Source: Patescibacteria group bacterium
GTDB lineage: Bacteria; Patescibacteriota; Microgenomatia; UBA8517
NCBI GenBank assembly: GCA_035291665.1
Contig: DATDRP010000003.1
Coordinates: 20,549 to 84,548 of the forward strand
Direction: 5' to 3'
Length of the DNA stretch: 64,000 nt
The notes beneath the pieces were generated by a model that saw only the letters and a list, made by a program, of their open reading frames with translations, was not told the origin of the DNA and ran no database searches. The translations under genes and the position numbers were made by a program. Positions 20,580 through 60,141 of the stretch are shown piece by piece (positions within the stretch are counted from its first letter, which is position 1; every line of letters begins with the position of its first letter).

Positions 20580-20611
20580 ACCACGAATTGGCTACAAATT
20601 TTTATAACAGA

Positions 20612-20720
20612 TTTCAAGAAAACCACCGAGTCGGACTCGGTGGATGAATTGAATTCTGATATGTCATCCTCCGTTAAAGGAAACCCCCGAGTCGGACTCG
20701 GGGGAGGATGTCATGATATT
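20612..20720 (-). ncRNA. Candidate structured small RNA / RNA element, copy 1 (minus strand), ending in an intrinsic terminator
   Basis: Outer stem ATGACATCCTCC...GGAGGATGTCAT (20661-20672 / 20704-20715) encloses the hairpin CCCCCGAGTC-G-GACTCGGGGG. The 3' hairpin CCACCGAGTC-C-GACTCGGTGG (20623-20643) is followed on the minus strand by TTTTCTTGAA. Second copy at 58480-58598 has compensatory stem changes. Confidence 0.5.
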
Positions 20721-20791: not shown

Positions 20792-21199
20792 ATGCCTAAA
20801 GTACTTCTAATTGAAGATGATCCATTGGTTGTAAGGATGTATCAGAAGATACTCACTTTTGAGGGTTTCCAAGTAGAAAGCGCGCCCGATGGAAGAGAGG
20901 GTGTCATGAAAGCAAAAGAAGTGAAACCCGATCTTATTTTTTGCGATGTGATGATGCCCAAAATGAACGGCATTGAAGTCTTGGAGCTACTCAAATCAGA
21001 TGCCGAGACAAAAGAAATTCCAGTTATAATGCTTACCAATTTATCCGGAACTCACGATGCAGAATTGGCGCTTCAGAAAGGTGCGTTTGCCTATATGGTA
21101 AAAAGCGAATACCGTCCGAAAGAAGTTGCGGCCAAAGCAAAAGAACTTATTGCGGGTTTAAAACTTACTCCGAGTGCACCCCAGGTATCGGGAGAATAA
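20792..21199 (+). CDS. Stand-alone response-regulator receiver (CheY-like REC) protein
   Basis: 135 aa. 'KVLLIEDDPLV...DLIFCDVMMPKMNGIEVL...IPVIMLTNLSG...AFAYMVKS' has the phospho-acceptor Asp and conserved Lys. No output domain. Confidence 0.8.
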   Translation: MPKVLLIEDDPLVVRMYQKILTFEGFQVESAPDGREGVMKAKEVKPDLIFCDVMMPKMNGIEVLELLKSDAETKEIPVIMLTNLSGTHDAELALQKGAFAYMVKSEYRPKEVAAKAKELIAGLKLTPSAPQVSGE

Positions 21200-21379
21200 A
21201 ACACTGTAACCAAGCAACCGAATTTCCAATTACGTAATTGATCTAATTACTAAATAATTACCAATAACCAAGCATCAAATTACAAATAATAATTAATTTA
21301 CAAATATTAATCAGGTATTAATTGTTAATTTTCTCAATACAGATAGTTTTTTTATTGAAATTTAGTGATTGTAAATTTG

Positions 21380-21583
21380 TTTGGAAATTGGAATTTGGTA
21401 ATTGGATATTTAGGTATTAGGTTGTAGGAAATGGGAAATGAGTAGTGACTAGTGGGAAGTGGGAAATGGAGATAAGCAAGTAGGTTGTAGGAAATTAGTA
21501 GCAATTCGTAGCTAATTGGAAGTATTTCGTGAACTTAATATCTTAATATCGAAGCACATAATATCTAACTGATTCGTGTTTAA
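21380..21583. repeat. Composite repeat island B (TAATTG/GGAAATTGG module, GT-rich module, AATTCGTA array, 33-nt 3' motif)
   Basis: 'ggaaattggaatttggtaattggatat' is shared with 14255-14285. 'ggttgtaggaaatgggaaatgagtagtgactagtgggaagtgggaaatgg'. 'cttaatatcttaatatcgaagcacataatatct' at 21534-21566. Confidence 0.7.
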
Positions 21584-21991: not shown

Positions 21992-22100
21992 GGTTCACTA
22001 ATTTTATACTAATTTTCACTAATTATATTCCATAAAAAACTCGTGATCAATCAATTCGCGTTTTTAATTCGCAATCAATTCGCGATTTAATAATTCGTAG

Positions 22101-24251
22101 CTAATTCGCAGCTCTAGCCAGAGGCAGACTCACCTTAAAAACCGATCCTTTGCCTTCAACCGACTCAAAACCAATTTCCCCTTTCATCTTCTCCACCAAC
22201 ATTTTTGTTATAAAAAGTCCCAAACCGGTTCCTTCAACATCTTCCGTACCTTCGGTTTTTGCCCGAAAGAATTTGCTAAAAACTTTTTTGTGGTCTTTTA
22301 GCGGTATTCCGTATCCCGTATCGGAAATTTCCAAAATAACGTGTTTCCCGGAAACGGCACTCTTTACAACAACCCTTCCTGCTGGTTTATTATATTTAAT
22401 CGCGTTAGAGAGAAGATTTTCCAAAACATCCCTGAGCTTTTGCTCATCTGCTTCGACAATAGCGGATGCAATTTCATAATCCTCATCCAAGATCACTCTT
22501 TTTTCCTGGGCAATTGAGGCAACCTGTGAGACCACGCTTTTTACTGTTGCCATAAAATCCACCTTTGTAAGTTCAAGTTCTATTGTGCCTGATTCAGTTC
22601 TTGCTATTTCCAAAAGATCATCCACAAGATGGTTTAACCTCTGATTGGCTTTCTCGATGGCATCAAAATTCTCCAATGTATCTTTGTCCATCTTTATTTT
22701 CTCGTCTTTTATAAGACTGACAAAACCATTAATTACCGTAACCGGTGTCCGCAGTTCGTGAGTTGCGATAAAGACAAACTCGTCTCTGAGTCGTATAACT
22801 TCCTGTGCTTTTTCGAGTTCGCGCTTTTGCATTTTGCGTAATTCCAGAGTTCGTTCTTCAACTTTTTGCTCAAGTGTGTGGGAAAACTCCTGTATCTTTT
22901 TAAAAGCTTGAGCGTTGGAAAGAGCGACTGCCAACTCAGTTGAAAGAATTTCCAATACTCCCAAATCCTTATCAAAATAAATATCACCGGATTCTTTTTC
23001 TCCCAGAAGTAAATATCCGACAGTTCTTTCGTGAGTAGAGAGTGGCACAAATACCGACACAACGTACTTTCGCATAATTTTTTTAAGTCTCCCTTCCTCC
23101 ATTTCTTCGAAAATTTGCGACCTGCCGCTGGCTGCAAGGTCTTTAAGCTCCGGAAAAGTCGGAAATGAATAATTTGTACTTCTATCACCAAAGACGTCTT
23201 CGATCTTTCGTGCTCCCAGAACGAATATAGCAGCTTTTGAAAAACGCAAGTTTTCCTTGAGAACTGAAAACATGCTTGCGGTCAGATCCTCAAGATCCAA
23301 AGTTGAAGCTAATATCCGGGAAATTTTTTTTAACAACTCATTGGAATGAAAATGTCCTTTGTAAAAAATATTATCTGTTAGGTCTTCGAAAAGCCTCAAA
23401 AGCGGTTGGAAAGAGTATGCGATTATTAAAGCTAATATTGTTGAAGATACAATATTGGAAGTTGACGTTCTTACATTCGTAATATAAGAAGTAATCAGAA
23501 AAAATCCTCCAGCGTAAAGTAAACCCAATGTAATTGCGAGCAATATATATGTTATAGACCGGGCAACTACCAAGCGAATATCCATAAGTCTATGTTTTAG
23601 TATTGCGTACGTAATAATCAAAGCCATTGCGACATTAACAAAAGGTCCGATATAAATAAGTCTGTAATTACCCAATTGAGGCAGGATTACATTCGGTACA
23701 ATGCCAATAACCATAGGGAGCATGCTTGCAAGTAATACATATCTAATTTGGGATCGAATATTACCTTTTAATCTCATCATACCTCTAATAAGAATTACCA
23801 AAGCTGTGTTATAAATAATCCCCAGGTAAATAGCCCAAATAATATAAACCGGACCTAGAATTACAGAATTACCTTGGTCGTCAAGAATAATCCGTTCAAT
23901 CCAGAGATTGGTATTAAAAAGTGGTATAAAAAAAATAAAAGGGACTGTTACCAGCAATATTGTCCAAATTTTTTCAGGAAATTTGCCGTTAACCAAGGTA
24001 TAGGAGAAATAAAAAATCGCAGAAGGAACTATGCTTCCGGAAACATAAATCATCCTACTCCAAAATAAAGCAGGCTCTTGAGTCTTAGATAATCTGAAAA
24101 ATGCAATTGCAAATGCCCAAACAATAACATTTAGGATAAAAACCGAAAATGATAGATTTAATGGATTTTTGGGATTCTTAACAAGAACTACTAAAAAAAC
24201 TGGTATTGATAAAATTCCAGACAATATGAGCGCCAAATCTATGATATTCAT
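22101..24251 (-). CDS. Sensor histidine kinase with N-terminal multi-TM sensor region
   Basis: N-terminal half has ~8-10 TM helices. H-box 'FVFIATHELRTPVTVINGF'. HATPase_c motifs 'ISDTGYGIP...GTGLGLFITKMLVEKMKGEIGFES'. Confidence 0.8.
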   Translation of the reverse strand: MNIIDLALILSGILSIPVFLVVLVKNPKNPLNLSFSVFILNVIVWAFAIAFFRLSKTQEPALFWSRMIYVSGSIVPSAIFYFSYTLVNGKFPEKIWTILLVTVPFIFFIPLFNTNLWIERIILDDQGNSVILGPVYIIWAIYLGIIYNTALVILIRGMMRLKGNIRSQIRYVLLASMLPMVIGIVPNVILPQLGNYRLIYIGPFVNVAMALIITYAILKHRLMDIRLVVARSITYILLAITLGLLYAGGFFLITSYITNVRTSTSNIVSSTILALIIAYSFQPLLRLFEDLTDNIFYKGHFHSNELLKKISRILASTLDLEDLTASMFSVLKENLRFSKAAIFVLGARKIEDVFGDRSTNYSFPTFPELKDLAASGRSQIFEEMEEGRLKKIMRKYVVSVFVPLSTHERTVGYLLLGEKESGDIYFDKDLGVLEILSTELAVALSNAQAFKKIQEFSHTLEQKVEERTLELRKMQKRELEKAQEVIRLRDEFVFIATHELRTPVTVINGFVSLIKDEKIKMDKDTLENFDAIEKANQRLNHLVDDLLEIARTESGTIELELTKVDFMATVKSVVSQVASIAQEKRVILDEDYEIASAIVEADEQKLRDVLENLLSNAIKYNKPAGRVVVKSAVSGKHVILEISDTGYGIPLKDHKKVFSKFFRAKTEGTEDVEGTGLGLFITKMLVEKMKGEIGFESVEGKGSVFKVSLPLARAAN

Positions 24252-26218: not shown

Positions 26219-26354
26219 ATTGCTACAAATATACTACGTATTCAAAACTAATTAATCTACAAATTATTATAGTACATGTGTTTGAAAGATATCCACTCAA
26301 ATTATTCTTGTATTCGAAGCTTAATTTGAATAAAATTCGTAGCTAATTTGTAGC

Positions 26355-53304: not shown

Positions 53305-53631
53305 AAGCACTATGGCCAGGCGCTAGGTATAAGGTAGTGAGAAGTGAGAAATGAGATGTGGAAATTGAGATGTGGGAAGTAAGTGGTGGGAAGTGGAAAA
53401 TAGGTTGTAGGAGGTAGGATATCAGGAATATAGGAATTAAAGGAATAAGTAGTTTCGTTCTTCTTTTTTCGTCTCTCGTATCCCGTATAACTTGTCACTT
53501 GTTACGTATTACTTTTCCCCTACCGCTTGATATCTTTCCTATTCGAGTTCAATTCGTAGCTATAATTCGTGATAATTAGTGATGTAAATTTGTGAGCTAA
53601 ATTCGTGAGTTCAATTCGTCTTAACTCGTAG
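53305..53631. repeat. Composite repeat island F (GT-rich module, 'TCGTCTCTCGTATCCCGTATAAC...ACGTATTAC' module, AATTCGTGA array)
   Basis: 'ggtagtgagaagtgagaaatgagatgtggaaattgagatgtgggaagtaagtggtgggaagtggaaaataggttgtaggaggtagg', then 'cgtctctcgtatcccgtataacttgtcacttgttacgtattac', then 'caattcgtagctataattcgtgataattagtgatgtaaatttgtgagctaaattcgtgagttcaattcgt'. Confidence 0.75.
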
Positions 53632-56478
53632 CTAATTAGTAGACATACTCGTGTAGCTCTTTGAGACCCATCCCAATAGGTCTTTATCATATTCTATTTG
53701 GTACCAGTCATCTTTCTCGGAGATTACGCTATACGAATCACCGGGATTTACTTTCGCCACCTCAACACCATCCGGTTGACTTCTGACTCGAAGCCAGCCT
53801 GTCGGCGTTTCAGTTATCTTAATTTCAATAGGTTCTGCGTCAGCTACTTTTTCTTCTGATTCTTCTGAAGCGTTGGATGTGACAATATACTTATTTTCTA
53901 TCCAACCGGATTTTTCAGAACCGTCCGCTAATGCTATTTCAACCCAATCTCCGTCCTCGCTGACTTTCACAACCTGTTCATCGTTTTTTACATCAAATAA
54001 TATCTCGCCATCTGTATCCGGAAGGTTCCGCACCTGAATATCAGCCTCGGAATCAGACTTCAATCTTACAAATTCAACTCCCCCGACCGATTCTTCCTGG
54101 TTGGCTGTCTGTGCAACTTCTTCCTTGGTTTTGGTAACTTCCTGATCGCTCACTGCCGGCGTGTTGGACGCTGCCGGTACGTAACGAAGAATCAATGCCG
54201 TTGTGAATGATGAAGTAACCGCAACTATCATCAAAGGCAGTGCCGTTCGCAATAAACCCTTAAATCCACCCCTTTTCTTTTCAGGCTGGGTTGCTTTTTT
54301 CTTATTTTCAGGCTCTACCTCCTGAACATGATCCTGAGAAAGCTTTTTCTTTTTTCTGCCGGAAATCATTCTCATGTAAAGCGCCAGGAAGACAAAACCT
54401 GTCGCCATGATGATGATGAGTCCCCAAACTGCAATAGCCTGAGCACCTCCGACAAATCCAAATAGCGTACCGGTCGAACCAGCTTGCGTCACCAGCTCTT
54501 TTAGTTTATCCATCTTCTCAGTTACAGCTTGAAGCTCAATCACAGCTTCACGATAATTTCTGATCTTCTGTTCAGGTGTTTGAGCTGTAGCCTGAAGGTT
54601 ATTGATTTTATCCAAGGATACATTAATGTCGCTTGTCAGAGTTACACCCTGGGCAAAAAAAGCCGTTCCTTCCAGTGGTTTGGAAAGCTCTTCCGCTTGT
54701 TTACGAAGACTGTCGATTTCATTGTCAGATATCACCCAAATGTCTTCCACTCTGACGGCAAAGACTTTGGTTTCGGCTGGTTCAAGTTCGAACTCACCTT
54801 CAATATAGTATTGATCTTTCTCTGTATCGTACTGGACTTTTAATCCTTCATCCACCTCTATGATATCTTCTTCTCTGACTTCAGGAGGAAGATAATATTT
54901 TATTGGTACGCTTTGAGAAACAAGAGTTGAGGGATTCGTGATCATTGATTTAAAAACCATGCTCCCTTCTTCAAGCCAAAAGTTGGAAAATGACGTTCTT
55001 CCACCCTTGGCCAAAAGCATTTTGTTTGATGAGATGAGTGCTTTAAGAGTAAGTAGCGAATTTTTAATCTTGGCAACAGCAGTACTTCCGAAAGACTTCG
55101 ACTCTGTTACAGCGCTGGCTTTTGGAATTCTATTTATAGCAAGTATGCTTTTTTTGAGATCCTCTACATTCTCGGGTTTAACCTGGTTTTTAGAATCGCC
55201 TATCGATGATAAATATTGGTCCACCTGGTTATTTTTTGTATCTAATACCAAAACTGTTTCTTCGACGTCTTTGATTTTTCCGAAAACTGTCGGCTTACTT
55301 GAGCTGTCGCTTGAATCTCCGATCATTTTTTCCAATATCGAAAGATAGTTTGTGAGACCGGCAAGCTCGCGTTTTGTATTTGGTGTTTTTCCGCTTGTTG
55401 ATAATGAATTCTTCGCATAAGCCACAACTTTTTTAATCGCTTTCACCTGGTCATTTACATCGGGTAGAACATCCCAGTTCCAGGAATCGGAAAGCCAATT
55501 CACCTGACCAAAAAACGAATTGACCGATCCGGAATCGCTTTCATCCCCAATCACCGAATCCAGCTCGGTTAAATTGTTCATAAGCTCCTCCTCGCTTAAC
55601 GTATTCCATTTTGAGCTTATGTTGGACGATTTACTCTGAATATATTGATTGTTAATATAAACCTGAGTCGCAATACTCTTTGATTGCGTCAGTTTTTCAG
55701 TTAGATCCTGGTTATCCTCTTCGATAAAACTTTCAATAATTGGTTTATTGACCAGCTTTTCCAAGAGGAGTCTGTTTTCTTTAATCGTTTTTTTAACATC
55801 ATTTAAATCTGCTGACACATTGGTGATATTCGTTGCGTTATCGATATCGGTCTTTGTTGCAAGATTTCCGCTTGTCAGGGTTGTACCGGTAAGTGTTCTT
55901 GTGGATGAATCCCAGATGTTGGTAACCAGAGATCCGAAACCCGTCAGAGTCCTGCCTGAATAATTCCAAATGTCATACGCTAGGTTTCCAAAACCCGAAA
56001 GTGTTTTGTTGGAATAATTCCAAACTGCTGAAGCGATTGAACTGGTTGTCAGACTGCTTGCTGTATCGCTGACTTCAAAGCTCTTATCTATACATAAATT
56101 CTCTGTTCCATTGGTACAACAAACCCGTGATCTATAAAATCCCGTTGCAGTTGGTGCTGTAAAATCTTTATGGTACCAACCATCAGTCTCCATAGTCATC
56201 AAAGCTCCGTTATGAATAAGGTTGTTGCTTTGATCGCGTGTGGTGATTGTGCAGGTGTAACCGGCAACAATTGGTGTATAGGAGTCATCAAACAGAAATT
56301 CACCGACAGTGCAATCAGTATCAGGAGTACAAACATTTGAGCTGCCCGACGCAGCCTTAACAAGATCAGCTCTCATCAAGGCTGCGCTAAATAACAAAGC
56401 TAAAATAGCTTTAAAGCCAAAACCTTTAGCGGTTCTTGTATAGCTTTGAGATTTAATTGTTAATTTTTGGGCAGTCAT
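53632..56478 (-). CDS. Large (948 aa) envelope protein: signal peptide, extracytoplasmic N-domain, coiled-coil, two TM helices, tandem C-terminal SH3b domains
   Basis: N-terminal signal (ILALLFSAALMRADLVKAAS). TM 'LFGFVGGAQAIAVWGLIIIMATGFVFLALY', then a K-rich loop, then TM 'LLRTALPLMIVAVTSSF'. C-terminal 'GWIENKYI' and 'GWLRVRSQPDGVEVAKVNPGDSYSVISEKDDWYQIEY...GWVSKSY' are SH3_3-like. Confidence 0.5.
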   Translation of the reverse strand: MTAQKLTIKSQSYTRTAKGFGFKAILALLFSAALMRADLVKAASGSSNVCTPDTDCTVGEFLFDDSYTPIVAGYTCTITTRDQSNNLIHNGALMTMETDGWYHKDFTAPTATGFYRSRVCCTNGTENLCIDKSFEVSDTASSLTTSSIASAVWNYSNKTLSGFGNLAYDIWNYSGRTLTGFGSLVTNIWDSSTRTLTGTTLTSGNLATKTDIDNATNITNVSADLNDVKKTIKENRLLLEKLVNKPIIESFIEEDNQDLTEKLTQSKSIATQVYINNQYIQSKSSNISSKWNTLSEEELMNNLTELDSVIGDESDSGSVNSFFGQVNWLSDSWNWDVLPDVNDQVKAIKKVVAYAKNSLSTSGKTPNTKRELAGLTNYLSILEKMIGDSSDSSSKPTVFGKIKDVEETVLVLDTKNNQVDQYLSSIGDSKNQVKPENVEDLKKSILAINRIPKASAVTESKSFGSTAVAKIKNSLLTLKALISSNKMLLAKGGRTSFSNFWLEEGSMVFKSMITNPSTLVSQSVPIKYYLPPEVREEDIIEVDEGLKVQYDTEKDQYYIEGEFELEPAETKVFAVRVEDIWVISDNEIDSLRKQAEELSKPLEGTAFFAQGVTLTSDINVSLDKINNLQATAQTPEQKIRNYREAVIELQAVTEKMDKLKELVTQAGSTGTLFGFVGGAQAIAVWGLIIIMATGFVFLALYMRMISGRKKKKLSQDHVQEVEPENKKKATQPEKKRGGFKGLLRTALPLMIVAVTSSFTTALILRYVPAASNTPAVSDQEVTKTKEEVAQTANQEESVGGVEFVRLKSDSEADIQVRNLPDTDGEILFDVKNDEQVVKVSEDGDWVEIALADGSEKSGWIENKYIVTSNASEESEEKVADAEPIEIKITETPTGWLRVRSQPDGVEVAKVNPGDSYSVISEKDDWYQIEYDKDLLGWVSKSYTSMSTN

Positions 56479-56876: not shown

Positions 56877-57833
56877 ATGTTAAGGCTTGATTACCATTTA
56901 TCCCCCACACTCCAACATAACCTACAAAATATTGAAGCGGTGCGGGTAAAAATTCTGACAACCGCACTTTCTCCCAAGCATGAACTCAGATTTAAATGGG
57001 AAACAAAATTATTAAAGATATATTCATCACTATGCCTGTCCGGAAGCGACATATCGAAGAAACAAATAATCGGGATTTTATCTTCAGGTGAAAAGAAAAA
57101 GGCCAACCGGGAGGAATCCGAAATAATCCGCTACAGAAACTGCCTTGACCACATCAGGAATGATTGGATGGCTAGTGGTAAAAACATTGGTACTAATGAT
57201 GTAAAAAATCTTTATGATGTAGCCTTGGTGCCTGTAGGAAGCTTTAATCCATCTTTATTTAATACCAAAGAAAAAGATCTGAAAAAAATTCTTGATTACG
57301 TTCAATCATCAAAAGAGAATCCTATCATTCAAGCCGGAATTGTTCAAATTCAGATTCACACACTGCAGCCTTTCAAAGAAGGGAACGGAATCGTTTCAAG
57401 ATTACTGACTGATCTTATCCTTTATAAAAACGGCTATGACGTCCGTGAGCTTATTGCACCTGAAATCGAGATGTATAACAGGCAAAAATCGCACGACATC
57501 GCAATTGATCTTTGCATAAAGGAAGATTCAATGTCTAAATGGCTTGATTATTTTGTTTATATCACGCTTCTCCAGCTCAAAAATGTCGCAACTGATATAA
57601 CTGAATCAAAATTTCTCACAGATTCAAAAAATTCTAATTTCAATCTTAATTCCAGGCAGAAAAAGATCCTTTTATTCCTTGAGGCTCCGAATAGTAAACT
57701 TGCAAATAAAGATGTTCAGAAAATGTTTAGTGTTTCCCAAATTACGGCGTCAAGAGATCTTTCTCATCTTGCCGGTTTGGGTCTATTGATTGGATACGGT
57801 AAAGCCAGGTCAAAAGTCTATATGAAGTCATGA
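56877..57833 (+). CDS. Fic/Fido-family protein with degenerate active-site motif and C-terminal winged-helix
   Basis: 'IHTLQPFKEGNGIVSRLL' aligns to HPFx(D/E)GNGRxxR with His->Gln and first Arg->Ile. The C-terminal 'SRQKKILLFL...VQKMFSVSQITASRDLSHLAGLGLLIGYGKARSKVY' is the wHTH typical of Fic proteins. Confidence 0.55.
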   Translation: MLRLDYHLSPTLQHNLQNIEAVRVKILTTALSPKHELRFKWETKLLKIYSSLCLSGSDISKKQIIGILSSGEKKKANREESEIIRYRNCLDHIRNDWMASGKNIGTNDVKNLYDVALVPVGSFNPSLFNTKEKDLKKILDYVQSSKENPIIQAGIVQIQIHTLQPFKEGNGIVSRLLTDLILYKNGYDVRELIAPEIEMYNRQKSHDIAIDLCIKEDSMSKWLDYFVYITLLQLKNVATDITESKFLTDSKNSNFNLNSRQKKILLFLEAPNSKLANKDVQKMFSVSQITASRDLSHLAGLGLLIGYGKARSKVYMKS

Positions 57834-58479
57834 ACCGTATCGGTACTTCTGTTATAATTTACGTATCGGTACAAATAAGATTCTCCAACAAACAAAAATT
57901 TTAGTGGTTTTAAAGATATCCTATACTTTCGAATTTTATAAATATTTAATTTTGGTTCTTAAAAAATATAATGTTTTATTTTTCATAACGGTACAACTAC
58001 ATTTTTGTATTTTGTTGATAATTTTTTTATAATTTCTTATAAATTTTTTGGGTCTTAAATTGCTAAATTATTAAAATATTTCTAGGTATATTCTTATGTA
58101 CCTTCGGTACATTCATATTTTCCTGCTATTTTTCTAAAAAAACCCAAGTCAGTTATTGATATCCCCCATTGGTCTAACACTGTAGTTTTTTCTAAAGAAA
58201 AATTTCATCATTTTTAATACTTCTTTTTTTGTATTTTAAATTGTTATTCCAATATTTTTATACTGCTCCGGTGCAATTACCCCTCGGTATTTTTCCTCCG
58301 TTATTTCGTATGAAGTAAATTTTCTCTGAAACTAGAATTCTCTTTTCTTATCCCCGAACATACATACATGGTATTTCAGGAAGTTGGATAATTTTTTTTA
58401 GTTTATTATTGATTCCTAATCTTCGTAACAACTATTTATGTAACGGTTGATTATTAAAATATTTGAATTTTTTATATTG

Positions 58480-58598
58480 TAATGACATCCTCCCCGCCTT
58501 AAAAGGCGGGGTTTCCCTAAGGAGGATGACATACCGTGCCCGCCGGCAGGCAGGTCAGAGTTCAATTCATCCACGCCCTAAAGGGTTAGGTTTTCTTG
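58480..58598 (+). ncRNA. Candidate structured small RNA / RNA element, copy 2 (plus strand), ending in an intrinsic terminator
   Basis: Outer stem ATGACATCCTCC (58482-58493) ... GGAGGATGACAT (58521-58532) encloses the hairpin CCCCGCC-TTAAAA-GGCGGGG. Shared single-stranded 'TCAGAGTTCAATTCATCCAC'. 3' hairpin CCTAA-AGGG-TTAGG followed by TTTTCTTGAA. Reverse-complement homolog of 20612-20720. Confidence 0.5.
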
Positions 58599-58858
58599 AA
58601 CGCTGTTATAATTAGATTGTAAATATAATTCTTATAATATAATACAAAATTAATATTAATATTTTAAATTTATCGTTCTTGAAAGTAAATTAATTATAAT
58701 TCTTGAATAGAATTTATATAACTACATAAAAATATACATTTCACTAACTACTATTATATATAACACTATATGTATTAATAGATCTCATAATAGCACTAAA
58801 TACCACTTTATAATTTTTACAACATCTGATATATATAGAGTTATAAAGAGGAATTAAT

Positions 58859-59887
58859 ATGGATGATCAGCAATCAGCTGGACTTTTCAGTATCGGAGCA
58901 GCTTCCGAATATCTAGGAATATCTATTGATACACTAAGAAGATGGGAAAGAAAAGGCAGAATCGAACCCCTACGATCCCCAGGAGGGCATCGCTATTTCA
59001 AGAAGGAAGACTTGGATAATTTATTTGGAAGAAGATACACAAGAGAAGAACCGGCTAACCAATCAACTATGCCCGATAGTACACCTATTGAACAAACAAA
59101 TATTAAGGAAGATGTAACACAACCCTTAAGCAATTTAAACGATAATAATTCAAGTGTAACTGAGAATTTAACGTCTACCCAATCAGCAGATGCAACCGTT
59201 CAAGATACTATATCTAAAGAAGATTATCCGCAACAAACTGCAAATCCTCAATTAAAGACTGAAGTTCCGGAAAATAATCCTCTACAAGAACCAATTTCAC
59301 CTACTCCAGTTGCTATACCCGTTCCAAACCAGAATGAAATGTTAAAAACCATTCCTTATTCGGATCCGGGCGTACCTGCTGCTACCGAAAATATACAAAG
59401 TTCCTCAACTGCACCCGAAGTGCAAGTTGCCTCTCCCCAACCGATAATAGAACTGCCAAAGATCTCGCCGGATGAGTATCCCGATACGAAAGTTTCAAAG
59501 CCGGATCAAATAACTAATGAACCGGTTGCTAAACCTACGGAACCTATTCAAAGCTATGAGAACGATAATACAACACAAAATGCACATTTAGTTGAAGCGC
59601 CTTCTCAGGTTGAAAATGCTAACACACAAGAAACGCTTATACCTGTTACCCCGGTTCCTGAATCTTCATCACAAGTGCCTTTGAATGAAGCTCCAAAACA
59701 ACCTGTATATGAAACAACAAAAGATATTGATAAAAAAATTGAAGAAGTTTTACAAAGCAGTAAACCGAAGAAGAAAATTACAACAGAAACCAAGTTACTA
59801 ATAGCCATAGCAATCGCTATTGTTGTAAACATTATTCTTTTTACACTTTGGTTCAAATCTTACGCTTCAGTATCACCAGTAAACTAA
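58859..59887 (+). CDS. MerR-family HTH protein with long disordered P/T/Q-rich linker and C-terminal transmembrane anchor
   Basis: 'FSIGAASEYLGISIDTLRRWERKGRIEPLRSPGGHRYFKKEDL' is a MerR/excisionase-type HTH. About 230 aa of low-complexity sequence follow. C-terminal 'LLIAIAIAIVVNIILFTLWF' TM helix. Confidence 0.55.
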   Translation: MDDQQSAGLFSIGAASEYLGISIDTLRRWERKGRIEPLRSPGGHRYFKKEDLDNLFGRRYTREEPANQSTMPDSTPIEQTNIKEDVTQPLSNLNDNNSSVTENLTSTQSADATVQDTISKEDYPQQTANPQLKTEVPENNPLQEPISPTPVAIPVPNQNEMLKTIPYSDPGVPAATENIQSSSTAPEVQVASPQPIIELPKISPDEYPDTKVSKPDQITNEPVAKPTEPIQSYENDNTTQNAHLVEAPSQVENANTQETLIPVTPVPESSSQVPLNEAPKQPVYETTKDIDKKIEEVLQSSKPKKKITTETKLLIAIAIAIVVNIILFTLWFKSYASVSPVN

Positions 59888-60065: not shown

Positions 60066-60070
60066 ATGTG

Positions 60071-60141
60071 TGGACCGGCCGAGAATCGAACTCGGGACTC
60101 GTCGTTGCGAACGACGCGGTATTCCACTTACCTATCGGCCC
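60071..60141 (-). tRNA. tRNA-Ala (anticodon CGC)
   Basis: Reverse complement folds as acceptor GGGCCGA / CCGGTCC (G3:U70 alanine identity pair; A7:C66 mismatch). D-arm GGTA-AGTGGAA-TACC. Anticodon stem CGTCG/CGACG with loop TTCGCAA (anticodon CGC). T-arm CCGAG-TTCGATT-CTCGG. Discriminator A. CCA not encoded. Confidence 0.85.

Follow-up and report, generated by a model that had tools for sequence, protein, structure and literature searches.

Introduction

In the insertion sequence (IS) IS608, guide tetranucleotides located 5' of each hairpin read the cleavage sites. Specifically, the left cleavage site C_L (TTAC) lies 19 nt 5' of the foot of the left hairpin and has the guide G_L AAAG, while the right cleavage site C_R (TCAA), at a 10-nt distance, has the guide G_R GAAT (PMC3201880, PMC5934647). 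PATEs are haloarchaeal derivatives of IS200/IS605 in which the left end (LE) is fused to the right end (RE) (PMC4615843). Our literature search found no PATE-type IS200/IS605 derivative described for bacteria of the Candidate Phyla Radiation (CPR). Here we analyse an element of ~110 nt that occurs twice in a 64-kb stretch of DNA from a Patescibacteria group bacterium (contig DATDRP010000003.1, positions 20,549 to 84,548; hereinafter the window). We conclude, with a probability of roughly 0.85, that the element is a non-autonomous, PATE-type derivative of IS200/IS605, with its LE fused almost directly to its RE and without a transposase gene. The most likely explanation of its hairpins is that they serve a mobile element as recognition structures in single-stranded DNA.

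Two other systems are relevant to this comparison. HgcC (RF00062) is a GC-rich noncoding RNA of archaea that has been without a known function since 2002. Gomes-Filho et al. pointed out an IS200/IS605 'RE-like' hairpin in HgcC and reported that PATEs are transcribed (PMC4615843). Rickettsia palindromic elements (RPEs) reside in frame in protein-coding genes, where they encode a peptide of ~35-50 aa (PMC10969869).

Results

A two-domain element present twice in the window

The covariance model R1, built from 30 family members, was run over the whole window with filters off. It returned exactly two strong matches, copy 1 and copy 2, and all else scored at most 22 bits (Table 1). Both copies contain two neighbouring hairpin domains, D1 and D2. 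In D1, AUGACAUCCUCC pairs with GGAGGAUGACAU as an outer stem around a GC hairpin; in D2, CAGNGUUCAA pairs with UUGAANNCUG as an outer stem around a second GC hairpin. At both ends of the element there are subterminal imperfect palindromes (IP_L and IP_R), which form GC-rich hairpins with compensatory changes.

Folding is strong on either strand (fold z-scores of -3.7 to -6.5). RNAalifold predicts 29 pairs for 30 curated copies, with compensatory changes in 19 of them. Among 64 distinct metagenomic copies, whose alignment was fitted to the model and therefore somewhat favours the pairing figures, 96.5% of cells are paired, compared with ~45% with slid partners, and double changes occur in 26 of the 29 pairs. 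The D2 outer stem covaries also in the metagenome set that was selected by D1 and is thus unbiased for D2 (TTCGA/TCGAA, CTCAA/TTGAG, TTTAA/TTAAA). G-U and A-C mismatches are roughly equal in number, so the pairing by itself favours neither strand. Two further structural candidates were rejected. In copy 1, L113, and L075 (L numbers denote loci of our scans), the two inner hairpins have co-evolved with each other, yet this is not consistent across copies; a tRNA-like T-arm in GTTCAATTC has unpaired flanks.

A preliminary description of copy 2 had presented it as the second copy of a conserved, strongly structured element, and the two window copies, the covarying stems, and the z-scores bear this out. 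The range given there, 58480-58598, covers most of the element but ends 13 nt short; the true end is 58611, so that the GTTATAA tail and the 3' strand of the outer stem are also part of it. The extra small hairpin noted in copy 2, TGCC-CGCC-GGCA, is likewise present, at 58537-58548, within an insert of 21 nt relative to copy 1, CCGTGCCCGCCGGCAGGCAGG, that is also placed as an insert in the covariance-model alignment. The core of this extra palindrome, GCCGGCAGGCAGG, turns up in unrelated contexts (9 of 242 loci), once within D2 of L212. The hairpin belongs to a second family of small GC-rich palindromes, CCTGCCTnGCCGGCAGGCAGG, that occurs in related genomes (also at L045 3411 and in L170, L172, L197, L210, L212, and L220). 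From its position inside D2 of another copy in L212, this palindrome may itself be insertional.

The variation of the hairpins also bears on coding capacity. In both copies AAGGAGG precedes an ATG that opens a short frame (MTY...SIHP), MTYRARRQAGQSSIHPRPKGLGFLERCYN in copy 2 (29 aa to the stop) and MTYQNSIHPPSPTRWFS in copy 1 (17 aa to the stop), and the opposite strand has one uninterrupted frame across the element (..FKKT..DELN..). However, the Shine-Dalgarno sequence abuts the ATG, the two copies share the frame only as far as SIHP and differ in ORF length (17 versus 29 codons), and hairpin variation alters the peptide freely while base pairing is kept. Translation of the opposite-strand frame is confined to host genes, where it is a passenger. 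The chance that the element is a small-protein gene is negligible in our view, in agreement with the preliminary judgement that the embedded open reading frame (ORF) is not a conserved peptide.

Ends of the IS200/IS605 type

In three loci, L024, L068, and L082, D2 read on the opposite strand precedes tnpA, a gene for a Y1 transposase (PF01797, E ~1e-41), by 60-110 nt. The left ends of these ISs read TTTTATC-N8-TTCAAGAAAAC, hairpin, GGATGAATTGAA, and, after 60-110 nt, tnpA. The presence of the D2 motif upstream of tnpA identifies D2 as the LE of an IS200/IS605 lineage. By this homology, the strand that was described at first is opposite to the functional top strand. On the mobile-element reading, the relevant strand of copy 2 is therefore the minus strand of the window, antisense to the MerR-like gene downstream. 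In L082, tnpA is followed by tnpB, which has Cas12f1-like TNB and OrfB_IS605 domains, and the right end reads ...GCTAGTTAGGAAGCC, hairpin, GGTAGTTCAC, with GGAAGCC before the hairpin. Repeats of 330 nt in Sulfurovum consist of an L082-type left end and an L082-type right end. An Rfam search of the autonomous IS of L082 at E-value level matched neither HgcC nor IS605-orfB.

Read on the top strand, the left part of the element is TTAT, then AAC...GAAAA, the hairpin IP_L, and GGATGAATTGAA..., with the predicted cut point after TTAT. The right part is ...ATGTCATCCTCC...GGGAAA, the hairpin IP_R, and AGGATGTCAT, after which the element ends. Both window copies have TTAT, 17 nt ending in AAAA, and a hairpin on the left, and GAAA, a hairpin, and the 10-nt tail AGGATGTCAT, which ends in TCAT, on the right. 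Positions 1-3 of cleavage sites and guides are the same as in IS608, while position 4 is exchanged with Watson-Crick pairing preserved (C:G to T:A on the left, A:T to T:A on the right). The Campylobacterota IS, with GAAG and TCAC, obeys the same guide rule. With TTAT/AAAA, TCAT/GAAA, and their spacing conserved, both window copies retain every cis feature needed for mobilisation. The RE (D1) and the right end of the autonomous IS are alike in architecture only: GGAAA and GGAAG, respectively, a hairpin, and a tail of 8-10 nt ending in TCAT or TCAC.

Filled and empty sites

In the profile of the flanks of 43 copies, conservation is sharp from ATRAC to ATAA, the flanks are unrelated, and a target duplication is not seen. 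ATAA at the right edge is kept in 40-42 of the 43 copies. Filled and empty sites can be compared directly at three loci. L192 contains two stretches that are 95% identical; in the empty one CCTAAATTAT is joined directly to GAATAC, while in the filled one an insert, AACAATTTCAAG...GGAGGATGTCAT, that is, AAC...GTCAT, separates CCTAAATTAT from GAATAC. The filled site of L040 reads ATT TAT(AAC...CGT CAT)AAC, with the insert in parentheses, and the empty ortholog in L129 reads ATT TAT/GGC. The insertion in L040 adds exactly 35 aa, which are missing from a paralog in L040 (44% identity) and from the ortholog P0242 (80% alignment identity). The filled site in L143 corresponds to an empty site in L166 (90% identical) that reads ...CCAT/G. 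The empty sites in L192 and L166 came from a search for flanks joined elsewhere (two more pairs). TTAT is present at the empty junctions of L192 and L129, and in L123 host codons supply it. As the empty L129 ortholog carries TTAT at its junction, the TTAT that the model counts as an element end belongs to the host.

The genes that contain in-frame copies are a GIY-YIG gene (L123), a gene for a PMT_2-like membrane protein (L006), and the membrane-protein gene of L040. In L123 the Pfam match to GIY-YIG ends at the insert, and every population variant of this locus carries the insertion (no empty variant). In all five copies within ORFs the model length is 1 mod 3; the inserted length, which excludes the 4-nt host TTAT, is thus a multiple of 3.

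A classical miniature inverted-repeat transposable element (MITE), that is, a DDE derivative with terminal inverted repeats and a target-site duplication, was considered and rejected. There is no duplication, and the complementarity between the ends ATRAC... and ...GTTATAA is imperfect, extends over 6-7 bp at most, and is confined to some subfamilies.

A dispersed family

The D2 pattern was found in at least 116 stretches of species-representative genomes, and the D1 pattern in at least 113 metagenomic stretches, which include bursts of near-identical copies, up to three a contig. R1 matches among those listed number at least 81 in the loci of the genome scan and at least 76 in the loci of the metagenome scan. 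Contigs with several near-identical copies are found, and contig breaks at the element are frequent. Among the matches listed, the full two-domain element is present in many metagenome-assembled genomes (MAGs) of Woesebacteria, Microgenomates, Levybacteria, and Shapirobacteria, and a variant (ATAACATCTTCC...) is present in MAGs titled Gammaproteobacteria. In Sulfurovum, Sulfurimonas, Sulfurospirillum, and other Campylobacterota, D2 is fused to other sequence, often at contig ends. A few D2-pattern matches within genes of unrelated taxa look like chance. The D1 pattern gave no match in a scan of viral contigs, and neither plasmids nor phages yielded a blastn match to copy 1. At the Rfam gathering score, 18 Campylobacterota and Gammaproteobacteria loci contain nothing except a tRNA.

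Several loci hold further repeats. In L050, L053, L078, L115, and other Campylobacterota loci, several repeat modules and D2 form composite clusters in varied arrangements, like nested MITE clusters; one module of the Sulfurovum-type clusters, GTGAACTACCTCTAGCTAAAGAGCTAGAGGCTTCC, is the reverse complement of the IS right end. In Woesebacteria GW2011_GWA1_39_21 (L075 5890-5990), the hairpin repeats CCACGGGCTAAAGCCCATGG and CACGGACTAAATCCGTGGTTTTCGCAGATGAATTCAAT are found near copies of the element, and AAACTACC... recurs directly after several copies. In L092 (6560-6976, and 6087-6224) the element is located in the 3' region of the 23S rRNA gene, on the rRNA strand. The last ~110 positions of the Rfam LSU model align onto the element there, and 340 nt beyond, ahead of the 5S gene, there is a group I intron match below threshold (43.8 bits). 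The arrangement may reflect an insertion in a CPR rRNA operon.

The neighbours show no pattern by family. Clustering of 800 neighbouring ORFs gave no recurrent family in more than four loci, and around ~120 instances the sole protein family to recur beside the element is a transposase, in three loci. An integron attC site was also considered and rejected, since the copies are single and scattered among housekeeping genes, with no arrays and no integrase cluster found. The copies have no fixed orientation with respect to their flanking genes.

Many copies adjoin gene ends, and in some the TTATAA tail provides the stop codon; in L015, L097, L031, and others, the gene end coincides exactly with this tail. 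Insertion after TTAT makes TTA-TAA in one frame, so the element can provide a new stop and reshape the 3' end of a gene. Position next to gene ends would also be expected of a repeated terminator or promoter cassette kept for termination or insulation between packed genes, comparable with the pneumococcal SPRITE. Terminator-like MITEs are known (PMC10969869), and copy 1 has T-rich runs after both hairpins, which a simple scan calls terminator-like on the minus strand. However, orientation to the upstream gene varies (28 -E-, 18 +E+, 12 -E+, and 10 +E-), the terminator-like strand of copy 1 opposes both flanking genes, and D2 of copy 2 is not called. Such a role would be a secondary use that leaves the spread and the structure unexplained, and we consider it unlikely to be what the element is.

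Surroundings of the two copies

Copy 2 lies in a gene-free gap of ~1 kb that follows a Fic-domain gene (56877..57833) and precedes a MerR-HTH gene (58859..59887). The GC content is 52% in copy 2, 25% upstream, and 16% downstream. There is no ORF of 60 aa or more in 57834-58858, as had been described; the longest have 52 and 50 aa, and both cross copy 2. The reading of the downstream gene as MerR-like also stands: its product has an N-terminal MerR helix-turn-helix (PF00376, E 1.6e-12) and, from the translation, a hydrophobic stretch near the C-terminus.

The preliminary description went on to propose a dedicated structured RNA, possibly a cis-regulatory leader of 58859..59887. Several features of copy 2 would suit leader or riboswitch-like control of this gene. 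The model match is on the same strand as the gene and ends 247 nt upstream of the ATG at 58859, in the gene-free region, and on that strand copy 2 ends in TGTTATAAT, a TGnTATAA extended -10-like box. However, a simple scan calls neither a promoter nor a terminator at copy 2, and there is no Rfam riboswitch match. Copy 1 is not upstream of such a gene, and the ~120 instances have no common downstream family. The linkage of element and gene that was expected in relatives does not appear: no neighbour recurs, and the MerR-like protein itself has no full-length relatives bar identical copies. With no linkage to a gene family, the leader hypothesis fails its own test, and we regard it as very improbable. 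An effect of copy 2 on the MerR-like gene, if any, would be an incidental by-product; on the gene's strand the copy also has a weak hairpin with a U-tract behind it.

Copy 1 is on the opposite strand from copy 2, and its neighbours are a Cache-domain sensor gene and a response-regulator gene. Its top strand is co-directional with the Cache-domain gene and begins 22 nt past the stop of that gene. The orthologous Cache-sensor loci L121, L122, L123, and L125 have no element at this position; they share only 60-68% protein identity, and the window has the response-regulator gene inverted, so the position does not qualify as a clean empty site. In L121 and L122 the response-regulator gene is convergent with the Cache-domain gene, at a gap of 29-51 nt. 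In the window this gene (20792-21199) has copy 1 on one side and a 384-nt AT-rich noncoding stretch (21200-21583) on the other, which suggests a local rearrangement at 20792-21583.

Three independent assemblies of the same population (L002, L003, and L004) stop just upstream of the MerR-like gene (58543-58750), and L003 begins within the element. These ends are consistent with repeat-induced or AT-rich assembly breaks, and, as they fall at or just downstream of copy 2, repeat behaviour is suspected.

Other repeats occur in the window. In the AT-rich gene-free region upstream of copy 2 (57838-58290), CGGTAC occurs four times and CGGTA once within ~450 nt, all on the plus strand (TATCGGTAC at 57838 and 57864, TAACGGTAC at 57986, TTCGGTAC at 58102). 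With 21 plus-strand occurrences window-wide, ~0.2 would be expected in this region; these repeats could be candidate protein-binding sites. The 15-mer AATTCGTAGCTAATT occurs four times, once with a mismatch and always on the plus strand (21503-21517, 22092-22106, 26334-26348, and 53623-53637), with a chance expectation of none; at least three of the four lie just past the 3' ends of minus-strand genes. A tRNA-Ala(CGC) gene at 60070-60141 (-), 183 nt downstream of the MerR-like gene, is the sole Rfam match in the window at the gathering score.

Table 1. Coordinates of the two copies and their parts in the window
Feature	Position	Strand	Motif	Remarks
Copy 2	58482-58611	top strand = window minus (model match on +)		cmsearch 93.4 bits, E 4e-20; 130 nt
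Copy 2, inserted DNA proper	58482-58607	-		
Copy 2, C_L (target and left cleavage tetranucleotide)	58608-58611	-	TTAT (ATAA on +)	host-derived, outside inserted DNA
Copy 2, LE (D2; 3' domain of preliminary description)	58555-58607	-		homology to tnpA-bearing IS left ends; stems covary
Copy 2, LE outer stem	58556-58565 paired with 58596-58605			stems covary
Copy 2, IP_L (left imperfect palindrome)	58571-58590			
Copy 2, guide G_L	58591-58594		AAAA on top strand (TTTT in window)	
Copy 2, extra palindrome at LE-RE junction	58534-58554	unassigned		21 nt, nested, GC-rich; absent in copy 1
Copy 2, RE (D1; 5' domain of preliminary description)	58482-58533	-		exact hairpin; sharp left conservation boundary
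Copy 2, C_R	58482-58485		TCAT on top strand (ATGA in window)	
Copy 2, IP_R (right imperfect palindrome)	58492-58511			10-nt tail between IP_R foot and element end
Copy 2, guide G_R	58512-58515		GAAA on top strand (TTTC in window)	
Copy 1	20602-20714	top strand = + (model match on -)		cmsearch 109.7 bits
Copy 1, TTAT	20602-20605		TTAT	
Copy 1, G_L	20619-20622			
Copy 1, IP_L	20623-20643			
Copy 1, G_R	20680-20683			
Copy 1, IP_R	20684-20704			
Copy 1, C_R	20711-20714		TCAT	

Discussion

Proposed mechanism

The organisation of the ends suggests how the element would move. A Y1 HUH transposase (TnpA), supplied in trans, would bind both subterminal hairpins in single-stranded DNA and would cleave just 3' of the left TTAT and of the right TCAT. 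The cut sites would be recognised by base pairing with the 4 nt 5' of each hairpin (AAAA for the left site, GAAA for the right). Excised as a circle, the top strand would then join 3' of another TTAT, with no duplication. Mobilisation by TnpA in trans, and present activity of the window copies, are inferred.

Several observations weigh against this interpretation. The resemblance of D1 to a true IS right end is one of architecture, not of sequence, the long outer stem of D1 is not a feature of IS608, and in L020, L036, L054, and L100 there are variants with a mini D1 or none and without a canonical IP_R. No tnpA or tnpB adjoins any CPR copy, and none was found in ~1.7 Mb of loci or in the 64-kb window, the lone exception being a distant TnpB-like match 8.7 kb from a copy in L179; nor did these searches reveal a parent IS in CPR. 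A search for autonomous elements of the form D1...ORF...D2 found none; the candidate in L075 proved to be one degenerate full copy with a separate D2 fragment. At the insertion sites, the empty site of L166 has CCAT at its junction instead of TTAT, and 5 of the 6 nt after the insertion in L040 differ from those of the empty ortholog. A 2-nt 'AT' duplication would also be compatible with the junction sequences.

Relation to HgcC

The reverse strand of copy 2 matches the Rfam HgcC model with 31.7 bits (E 8.8e-6 in a local search of 321 nt), and three other copies score 34.2, 33.7, and 26.6 bits. The copies might thus be paralogous genes for bacterial small RNAs that are related to archaeal HgcC RNA and function at the RNA level. 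On the reverse strand the internal loop of D2 is purine-rich (GAAAA/AUGAA), like many RNA motifs, HgcC RNAs are reported to be expressed (PMC5496347), and a PATE-derived RNA has a growth effect in Halobacterium (PMC4615843). However, the scores are below the 50-bit gathering score and there is no match in gathering mode, so membership is not claimed. The balance of mismatches favours no strand, and a conserved promoter, neighbour, or orientation was not found among the copies. In addition, in-frame copies in coding genes and insertion polymorphism with exact junctions are the behaviour of a transposon. We therefore judge an origin as HgcC-related RNA genes to be improbable. It does not exclude the transposon interpretation, and transcripts may exist.

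The HgcC consensus itself obeys the guide/cleavage rule of IS200/IS605. It reads ...GGAAC, followed by CCCCGCCC UUUA GGGCGGGG and then AGGAGGUCAG, that is, GAAC, a hairpin, and a 10-nt tail ending in UCAG. This fit suggests that HgcC loci are the same kind of element, and the transposon more likely explains HgcC than the reverse. Judged by the Rfam consensus, HgcC and the bacterial elements might alike represent transcripts of IS200/IS605 LE-RE fusions, a possibility that we hold to be rather doubtful at present. If this is true, in-frame CPR copies would be a source of protein insertions of 35-36 aa, similar to Rickettsia palindromic elements. Should transcription of the CPR copies be from the top strand, a role as orphan omega-RNA-like partners of TnpB, or as decoys of TnpA, is conceivable.

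Implications

A GC-rich, covarying island of two hairpins in AT-rich CPR DNA mimics a riboswitch or a small RNA and, as a transposon relic, is a false lead that can now be removed. Whenever CPR or other low-GC genomes are scanned for structured RNAs, this family will turn up again. Its copies can be masked by R1 together with the rule TTAT, 17 nt ending in AAAA, hairpin; GAAA, hairpin, 10-nt tail ending in TCAT. The guide/cleavage logic of IS608 holds in CPR, in Campylobacterota, and, by the Rfam consensus, in archaeal HgcC loci, with position 4 covarying. The very small CPR genomes undergo active sequence turnover, with in-frame insertions in membrane-protein and GIY-YIG genes, 3' ends remodelled by element-made TAA, and assembly breaks. 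The element is a real but ordinary finding in kind, a new non-autonomous (PATE-type) member of the IS200/IS605 derivatives; what it adds is a clean covariation test of the IS608 guide rule, in-frame insertions of the RPE type, and the link to HgcC.

Comparison with known systems

REPs and REPINs are repeats of 20-40 nt with a GTAG or CGTC tag, arranged as inverted doublets, and their enzyme RAYT (TnpA_REP) is a Y1 HUH enzyme related to IS200 TnpA. Our element resembles them as a short hairpin repeat that would be read as single-stranded DNA by a Y1 HUH enzyme, but it has distinct LE and RE modules with cleavage and guide sites of the IS type. With RPEs it has in common that short palindromic repeats are inserted in frame within genes. 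Sequence and host are unrelated, however, and while the mechanism of RPE mobilisation is unknown, the ends of our element point to an HUH transposase.

The likeness to HgcC is on the same strand and extends over a hairpin, GAUGA..UGAAC, GAAN, a GC hairpin, and a 10-nt tail AGGAGGUCAN', in which N and N' are complementary (GAAC/UCAG in the HgcC consensus, GAAA/UCAU in the element). HgcC differs in being archaeal and in having a central hairpin that is absent from most bacterial copies, and the scores of 26.6-34.2 bits compare with a threshold of 50.

The element shares with IS608 and ISDra2 a left spacing of ~17-19 nt, a right spacing of 10 nt, guides 5' of the hairpins, and insertion 3' of a tetranucleotide without duplication. 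Unlike them, it has no tnpA or tnpB, its target is TTAT and not TTAC or TTGAT, and its hairpin sequences are unrelated. The closest match is with PATEs, which also have no transposase gene, a left hairpin fused to a right hairpin, no terminal inverted repeats, and no target duplication, and which are also dispersed in multiple copies with the target tetranucleotide at the left flank. Unlike PATEs, our element is only ~105 nt long, has an extra long outer stem round the RE hairpin, and often lies in frame inside genes. Its hosts are CPR bacteria (Microgenomates/Woesebacteria-like) and MAGs titled Gammaproteobacteria, with LE-only versions in Campylobacterota.

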